64,000 bases of DNA from a virus: positions 100,108 through 164,107 of IMG/VR virus record IMGVR_UViG_3300044451_000434. One strand, given 5' to 3'. Each line of letters starts with the position of its first letter. The first letter of the stretch is position 1. Below are positions 20,511-20,790 of this stretch, piece after piece. The notes beneath the pieces were generated by a model. It worked only from the letters and a program-made list of their open reading frames with translations. It was not told the origin of the DNA and did not search any database. Position numbers and translations under genes: made by a program.

Positions 20511-20790
20511 ATTGGATAGGTCTCTCGCCTGTATCGGAGACCAAAATCTTGGTTTGGCGATTAGGGGGGTCGCCTGATGGGTTTTGAGCAAACGCCCCCG
20601 ACGGACGAAAGTCTGGTCCAATAGCTCAAGTATGCTCAGGAGTCGGGAGCTGTGAAGCATGATGCGTACACAAGACGCATGTGCACCGATGGGGTTTCTA
20701 CAGACTGCAGGAAGTCTGCCCGCACACCATCCCAGGTGTGCTGATGAGACATGTCGACCAACCATGGTCGGATGGGATGATGCATTGTGA
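20511..20790 (+). ncRNA. Candidate large structured ncRNA (unassigned family)
   Basis: GC-richer intergenic block with at least eight hairpins and three pseudoknot/long-range pairings; GAAA tetraloop and G-U pairs favour the + strand. Confidence 0.65.

Follow-up and report, generated by a model that had tools for sequence, protein, structure and literature searches.

Positions 20513–20850 (+ strand) of the window (the whole stretch of viral DNA that was analysed, 64,000 nucleotides) very probably hold the gene of a single-copy, structured non-coding phage RNA of ~340 nt, which would be transcribed independently. In the predicted fold about eleven hairpin helices form a compact body, held together by five pseudoknots and a long-range kissing loop; only a short 3' core is invariant. 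About 20 distinct homologs (~305–375 nt), from lake to marine jumbo phages, were found; one architecture is common to all, and the element is single-copy in all records searched. Six covarying crossing pairings are packed in ~340 nt, and the fold is kept while the sequence diverges almost to randomness. Few large RNAs are so intricate; the ones whose function is understood (RNase P, introns, tmRNA, rRNA) carry out central chemistry.

Location and extent

The source record (164 kb, viral, ~39% complete) is from a tailed jumbo phage and encodes a portal, a terminase, tail proteins and a sigma factor. On one side of the element a minus-strand tail-protein operon starts (598-aa gene); on the other, a minus-strand gene of a 290-aa ATPase ends. 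In BLAST against cultured phages the DNA gave chance matches only and the ATPase none; no cultured relative was found. Elsewhere in the window, the portal protein (1413–3623, −) bears a C-terminal restriction-endonuclease-like (MTES_1575/DUF559) domain; a Tad3-like anti-Thoeris protein, superoxide dismutase, SAM decarboxylase and several glycosyl- and methyltransferases are also encoded.

The preliminary description of this DNA had placed an RNA at 20511–20790, GC-richer than its flanks and with no credible ORF. The range was too short: the element reaches ~20850, and the most conserved part, 20790–20849, was missed. The base composition was described correctly (GC 0.54 inside the element vs 0.33 and 0.31 in the flanks). 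Perfect local hairpins of at least 6 bp number 7, vs 1.9 ± 1.4 in dinucleotide shuffles (7 was reached in 0 of 300 shuffles); the folding z-score, computed for nested folds with pseudoknots ignored by the method, was unremarkable (−1.2 on the + strand, −2.1 on the − strand). On the minus strand, ORFs of 172 and 109 aa run across the element region; neither has a family match and no frame stays open across the homologs, so that a coding explanation was rejected and the absence of a credible ORF stands. No terminator-like site was found at the 3' end of the RNA. A helix closing the 5' and 3' ends found no support, leader–tail pairing being not above controls.

Homologs

The search was anchored on the ATPase; a homologous intergenic element was found downstream of the ATPase gene, on the opposite strand. 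The ATPases of the homolog-bearing phages are 44–92% identical, and the homologs fall into five sequence groups, the distant ones being 52–66% identical to the element of the window vs 54% for shuffled sequence. A covariance model of the 3' module (R1) gave 21 loci at 40–68 bits, most of which belong to its training set, and one RNA copy per record. An RNA-pattern scan independent of the protein returned 12 matches, all on contigs with the ATPase; looser pattern-scan matches were mostly due to chance and were rejected by R1 where tested. In the distant relatives G001–G005 only chance-level matches were obtained (descriptor search over 340 of the 499 kb of G001), and the two that were inspected were coding DNA. 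In L008 the 3' core has a second, weak match (19 bits; L008:4566–4629, −), located just upstream of the RNA and possibly due to chance. The bin of L205 is labelled Pacearchaeota, yet the contig has the phage gene arrangement and is probably a mis-binned phage contig.

Fold of the RNA

Helices were assigned by hand and pairs were counted on hand-picked strands, by which the counts are biased; the bias was limited by comparing whole loops or fixed windows, bounded by nested hairpins and the core motif. A model-made alignment contained a one-base register error from MAFFT, and its pair counts were set aside. All 12 strand pairs named in the preliminary description are present where it put them; the architecture given below (all + strand) differs from it in several pairings.

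Hairpin P1 (20519–20542; strands 20519–24/20537–42) exposes a loop, 20528–33, that kisses 20706–11, the loop carried by P8 (20701–05/20714–18), over a span of 180 nt; in 17 sequences the kissing helix comprised 93 Watson–Crick pairs, 2 G-U pairs and 2 mismatches, and the pairing energy was −5.7 kcal/mol for cognate vs −2.2 kcal/mol for non-cognate loops. P2 (20556–20574) is a variable, optional hairpin that was seen in the two closest clades. In the next module (20579–20629), P3 (20579–82/20594–97) is crossed by PK1 (20584–89/20624–29), with the GNRA hairpin P4 (20603–14) in between; the strands of PK1 had previously been taken for a simple enclosing stem. PK1 is the weakest of the six crossing pairings (within-clade p 0.008; poor in L008 and L016); the P4 loop varies within GNRA among close homologs. 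The loop of P5 (20634–37/20647–50) forms PK2 (20642–46/20686–90) across P6 (20662–67/20675–80), the module extending over 20634–20690; 85 of 85 PK2 pairs are canonical, in several sequence versions. P7 (20691–93/20719–21), whose 5' bulge forms PK3 (20694–98/20746–50), encloses P8 and is followed by P9 (20722–28/20735–41; module 20691–20750); the P9 loop is engaged in PK4 (20729–33/20774–78), which spans P10 (20755–60/20765–70; module 20729–20778).

PK4 is the one of three crossing pairings proposed earlier that was confirmed; the other two are not conserved across the family. Pairing of 20511–16 with 20617–22 is broken already in the 88%-identical homolog L002 and absent in most homologs, and that of 20597–602 with 20642–47 was found in the closest clade only, without covariation, the 20642–46 loop being paired instead within PK2 in all clades.

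The 3' end (20779–20849) is an H-type pseudoknot of PK5 (20779–85/20819–25) and P11 (20802–10/20836–44); the energy of PK5 was −12.4 kcal/mol with its own partner vs −5.6 kcal/mol with foreign or shuffled ones. It contains the only invariant sequence of the family, AUGG..UGWCC (20790–802) and RGUGGC (20843–48), the latter with a probable bulged U; most of this core lies beyond the end that had been proposed for the RNA. An extension of P11 around the bulged U is deduced from complementarity, since invariant bases cannot covary. The 3' pseudoknot with its invariant core is the candidate functional centre.

Over the 14 helices in 17 homologs 1207 Watson–Crick, 71 G-U, 3 A-C and 6 other pairs were counted on the hand-picked strands. 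Each of the six crossing pairings (the kissing loop and PK1–PK5) was stronger with its own partner than with that of another phage or a shuffled one (within-clade permutation p 5e-5 to 8e-3, own vs foreign partner, hand-assigned helices), so that all six covary on the + strand. Because the crossing pairings covary although distant homologs are near shuffled identity, the fold is conserved where the sequence is not. The + strand is indicated by the G-U excess (71 G-U vs 3 A-C) and by the loop that varies within GNRA.

DNA elements around the RNA gene

A CGA-AT-rich promoter-like motif (20503–20512, +) precedes the element, with a putative transcription start just downstream. CGA followed by an A/T-rich run is found 9–15 nt before P1 in 16 of 17 homologs and 21 nt before it in the remaining one. 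A similar motif, defined after looking, stands in sense orientation before 8 of the 37 genes of this genome that have upstream gaps, vs 2 in antisense (p 0.006–0.023); it also precedes the ATPase gene in most homologs, where it is inside the coding region of the adjacent ~220-aa protein. No clear enrichment was seen in G001 or G004, and the motif is not confined to late genes. These data lend modest support to its being a phage promoter.

Downstream, a G-rich tail follows the RNA core by 8–20 nt in most homologs. An AT-rich stretch (20883–20922; GC 0.15 over 40 nt) is present in many but not all homologs and is weak in several. A second conserved element (20930–20991), found 90–120 nt after the RNA core in most homologs, consists of hairpins with GNA-triloop motifs of the DNA mini-hairpin type (GCGNAGC at 20969–75). 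GCGNAGC hairpins occur in 17 of 20 spacers between RNA and ATPase vs 1.3 in shuffles; GNA-triloop hairpins, common in the spacer, are almost missing inside the RNA element (2 in 17). One mini-hairpin loop is inverted between close relatives, which suggests a signal at the DNA level, either a priming site or a hairpin promoter. The mini-hairpin motif occurs at the G4 origin, at ssiA and at N4 promoters, and at phage and plasmid priming sites (PMC13037366). The spacer of L016 (3900–4100) holds about four tandem, iteron-like copies of a ~37-nt unit.

Adjacent proteins

The 290-aa protein (21081–21953, −) is a PtuA/SMC-head-like ABC ATPase, and its gene is convergent with the RNA in every homolog. 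Its nearest solved relatives by sequence and fold are the PtuA proteins of retron I-A and Septu (best PDB, PADLOC and Foldseek matches; ~15% identity). Walker B reads D-N, not D-E; Asn replaces Glu in 67 of 69 ATPase homologs, including relatives without the RNA. Such a substitution in an ABC ATPase should impair hydrolysis.

Head-to-head with the ATPase gene stands a gene of a conserved ~220-aa protein (21952–22617, +), the start codon of which overlaps or abuts that of the ATPase; no family match and, despite a confident model (pLDDT 84), no clear fold match was obtained. Every locus with the ATPase, the 220-aa gene and enough flank carries the RNA core, while the other neighbours vary. Two more distant relatives with the family's gene order, both complete, have the ATPase (also D-N) and 220-aa genes far apart, and no RNA core was detected in them; both proteins persist there and seem, for that reason, not to need the RNA. 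Degenerate tRNA-like sequences lie in the gap downstream of the 220-aa homolog at L262 (G004:31900–32320, −). At 22657–22992 (+) the window encodes a basic 111-aa protein (phrog_7595) that is 61–86% identical across clades and far more conserved than its neighbours.

Function

A rigid, sequence-free scaffold with one small invariant core points to a specific partner or chemistry at the core. Ranked first, tentatively, is the reading that the RNA is a subunit of an RNA–protein complex with the adjacent PtuA-like ATPase, on the grounds of the constant linkage and of the binding of PtuA to a nucleic-acid scaffold in retrons; there, PtuA binds a retron DNA scaffold, and part of the ncRNA is found in the complex as well (PMC12475279). 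The knotted RNA body would be a nuclease-resistant scaffold presenting the invariant core, probably a triple-helix pocket around the bulged U, to a phage protein; the likeliest partner would be the ATPase, possibly together with the 220-aa protein. As its catalytic glutamate is missing, the ATPase may work as a clamp with ATP bound and not as a motor. During infection the particle would act in trans, e.g., as a decoy or regulator directed against host ATPase–nuclease defences. Several observations count against this partner, however: conserved gene order in this phage family may by itself account for the linkage; the two distant phages keep both proteins without detectable RNA; the RNA is convergent, not co-transcribed, with the ATPase gene; and in three partial genomes neither a reverse transcriptase (PF00078) nor an HNH partner was detected, which leaves the retron parallel loose.

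Replication offers a different explanation, somewhat unlikely in our estimate: the transcript, as an origin primer, would stay hybridised at its G-rich tail beside the AT-rich stretch, which would unwind, and the DNA mini-hairpins would be priming signals. ColE1 RNA II and the T4 origin transcripts are precedents. The locus has the appropriate order (promoter motif, RNA, G-rich tail, AT-rich stretch, GCGNAGC hairpins, these last in 17 of 20 spacers vs 1.3 expected); the element is single-copy and lacks a terminator-like site at the RNA end, the L016 spacer has tandem repeats, the inversion of one hairpin loop between close relatives is as expected of a DNA-level element, and such mini-hairpins are known at the G4 origin, ssiA and N4 promoters (PMC13037366). 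Yet no consistent skew inversion was seen at the locus (fourfold sites, partial genomes), a T/A shift in G006 being ~45 kb away; the AT-rich stretch is weak in several homologs, the mini-hairpin motif is also present 22–41 times per record, and no primer RNA is known to be so knotted. An RNA-only multimer or cage like ROOL and GOLLD, which we regard as unlikely, would make some of the covarying loop–loop pairs intermolecular and the RNA an abundant scaffold, sponge or virion cargo. One ROOL pairing that covariation had suggested to be tertiary did prove to be intermolecular (PMC12286853); the 180-nt reach of the P1–P8 kiss and the 4–6 nt palindromes in several loops (counted without a control) are consistent with such contacts. 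The RNA is, however, about half the size of ROOL and GOLLD and not beside tRNA clusters, is in fixed linkage to two protein genes, and has an invariant core that suggests a specific ligand.

A single pseudoknot, with two UGG triplets and a probable bulged U, holds all invariant bases, a pattern typical of active sites. A new ribozyme or ligand-binding RNA, with the core as catalytic or binding pocket, is nevertheless quite unlikely: no ribozyme or riboswitch model matches, there is no co-oriented downstream gene to regulate, the hammerhead-like heptamer at 20741–47 is not conserved, and similarity to E. coli rRNA is not above chance. One version of it has the invariant UGG reading tRNA CCA ends, as is done by T-box RNA, RNase P and the ribosome. 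That the element is a highly diverged tmRNA, RNase P RNA, omega-RNA or intron is very improbable; length and the chain of pseudoknots do resemble tmRNA, but a tRNA-like domain and a 5'–3' closing helix are lacking, no Rfam match was obtained in 11 diverse loci, and one carrier phage has a normal tmRNA elsewhere. It is equally improbable that the structure arises in single-stranded DNA only and has no use as RNA. The neighbouring mini-hairpin element does look DNA-level; GNRA loops, however, are kept through substitution in the element, the promoter-like motif is at a fixed distance, GNA-triloop hairpins are scarce inside (2 in 17) and common in the spacer, and six pseudoknots have little precedent in DNA.

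Comparison with known RNAs

That tmRNA, RNase P, SRP and riboswitches could not be matched, as had been held on first reading, agrees with the searches: Rfam 15 gave nothing at gathering score and ARAGORN no hit to the element in the window; GOLLD, ROOL, OLE, raiA and others were absent at E ≤ 10 locally and at E ≤ 2 in ten homolog loci. No description of the RNA was found in the literature searched; fragments of it may be contained, unnamed, in supplementary files of PMC10690425 or the database described in 10.64898/2026.10.21.760802. By-eye resemblances to 23S rRNA, HDV and twister had no support against E. coli rRNA or Rfam and were dismissed as coincidence.

With tmRNA (RF00023) the RNA shares its length (~350 nt), serial pseudoknots and carriage by jumbo phages; it differs in having no tRNA-like domain and unpaired ends (ARAGORN and Rfam negative), and it coexists with a true tmRNA in G006. 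Among the long reading frames examined none was conserved across homologs. For RNase P RNA there was no Rfam match, and the invariant columns, judged by eye, do not spell the motifs CR-I to CR-V or P4. Models of hammerhead, HDV-like, twister, pistol and hatchet ribozymes gave no match; the same tool detects a pistol ribozyme elsewhere in G006. This carrier phage has that ribozyme at L331:12604–12665 and a canonical tmRNA heading a tRNA cluster at L328:17732–18100; a separate intergenic hammerhead-like core, seen by eye and below the Rfam gathering score, occurs at L285 (G001:32760–32840, +). As regards group I and II introns and omega-RNA, the element is intergenic in all loci, with no maturase, IscB or TnpB neighbour and no Rfam match. 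In the jumbo phage RaK2 the core pattern and model R1, which represent the 3' module, gave no match.

Origin primer RNAs (ColE1 RNA II, T4) resemble the locus in that a promoter, a folded RNA, an AT-rich stretch and DNA hairpins of the priming type follow one another; the new RNA is far more knotted and has an invariant tertiary core, and no consistent skew inversion was seen at its locus in the partial genomes. The retron I-A/Septu systems (Ec78, Ec83; PMC12475279) likewise place a structured ncRNA gene beside an ATPase, PtuA, the nearest solved relative of the phage one; here, however, no HNH nuclease (PtuB) was recognised beside the ATPase, the 220-aa neighbour matching no family or fold, no retron inverted repeat closes the RNA, the orientation is convergent, and the ATPase is phage-encoded and much shorter, with Asn in Walker B. 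No reverse transcriptase is among the neighbours, and PF00078 was absent from three partial genomes, in the unsequenced remainder of which one may still be encoded.

The preliminary description had concluded on a novel large phage ncRNA of GOLLD/ROOL-like complexity. The ornate candidate RNA is upheld, with six crossing pairings, more than had been seen; it is shorter than GOLLD and ROOL and unrelated to them in sequence. Like these it is a phage-encoded, protein-free gene product with many pseudoknots and kissing loops, of ~340 nt vs ~660 nt (ROOL env-120) and often >800 nt (GOLLD) (PMC12286853). It differs further in always adjoining the ATPase gene, in helix order and in having no Rfam match; its neighbours are protein genes in all loci and the nearest tRNAs of the window are ~38 kb away (ARAGORN), unlike the tRNA islands of GOLLD and ROOL. 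The RNA is best placed, as a new family, among the large ornate phage RNAs, themselves a loose grouping; there is a real chance that it represents a new kind of RNA machine. One form of this, possible but held with reserve, would be a new class in which a 340-nt six-knot RNA with a catalytic or tRNA-end-binding core works with a hydrolysis-impaired PtuA-like ATPase, either as the phage counterpart, free of reverse transcriptase, of retron–ATPase complexes or as a structured RNA that initiates replication in jumbo phages. Unlike ROOL and GOLLD, this RNA has an invariant core, short enough to be a defined target for mutation, and an ATPase gene always beside it, the product of which is a defined candidate partner; its size suits in vitro transcription and cryo-EM, which makes the role of ornate phage RNAs directly testable.
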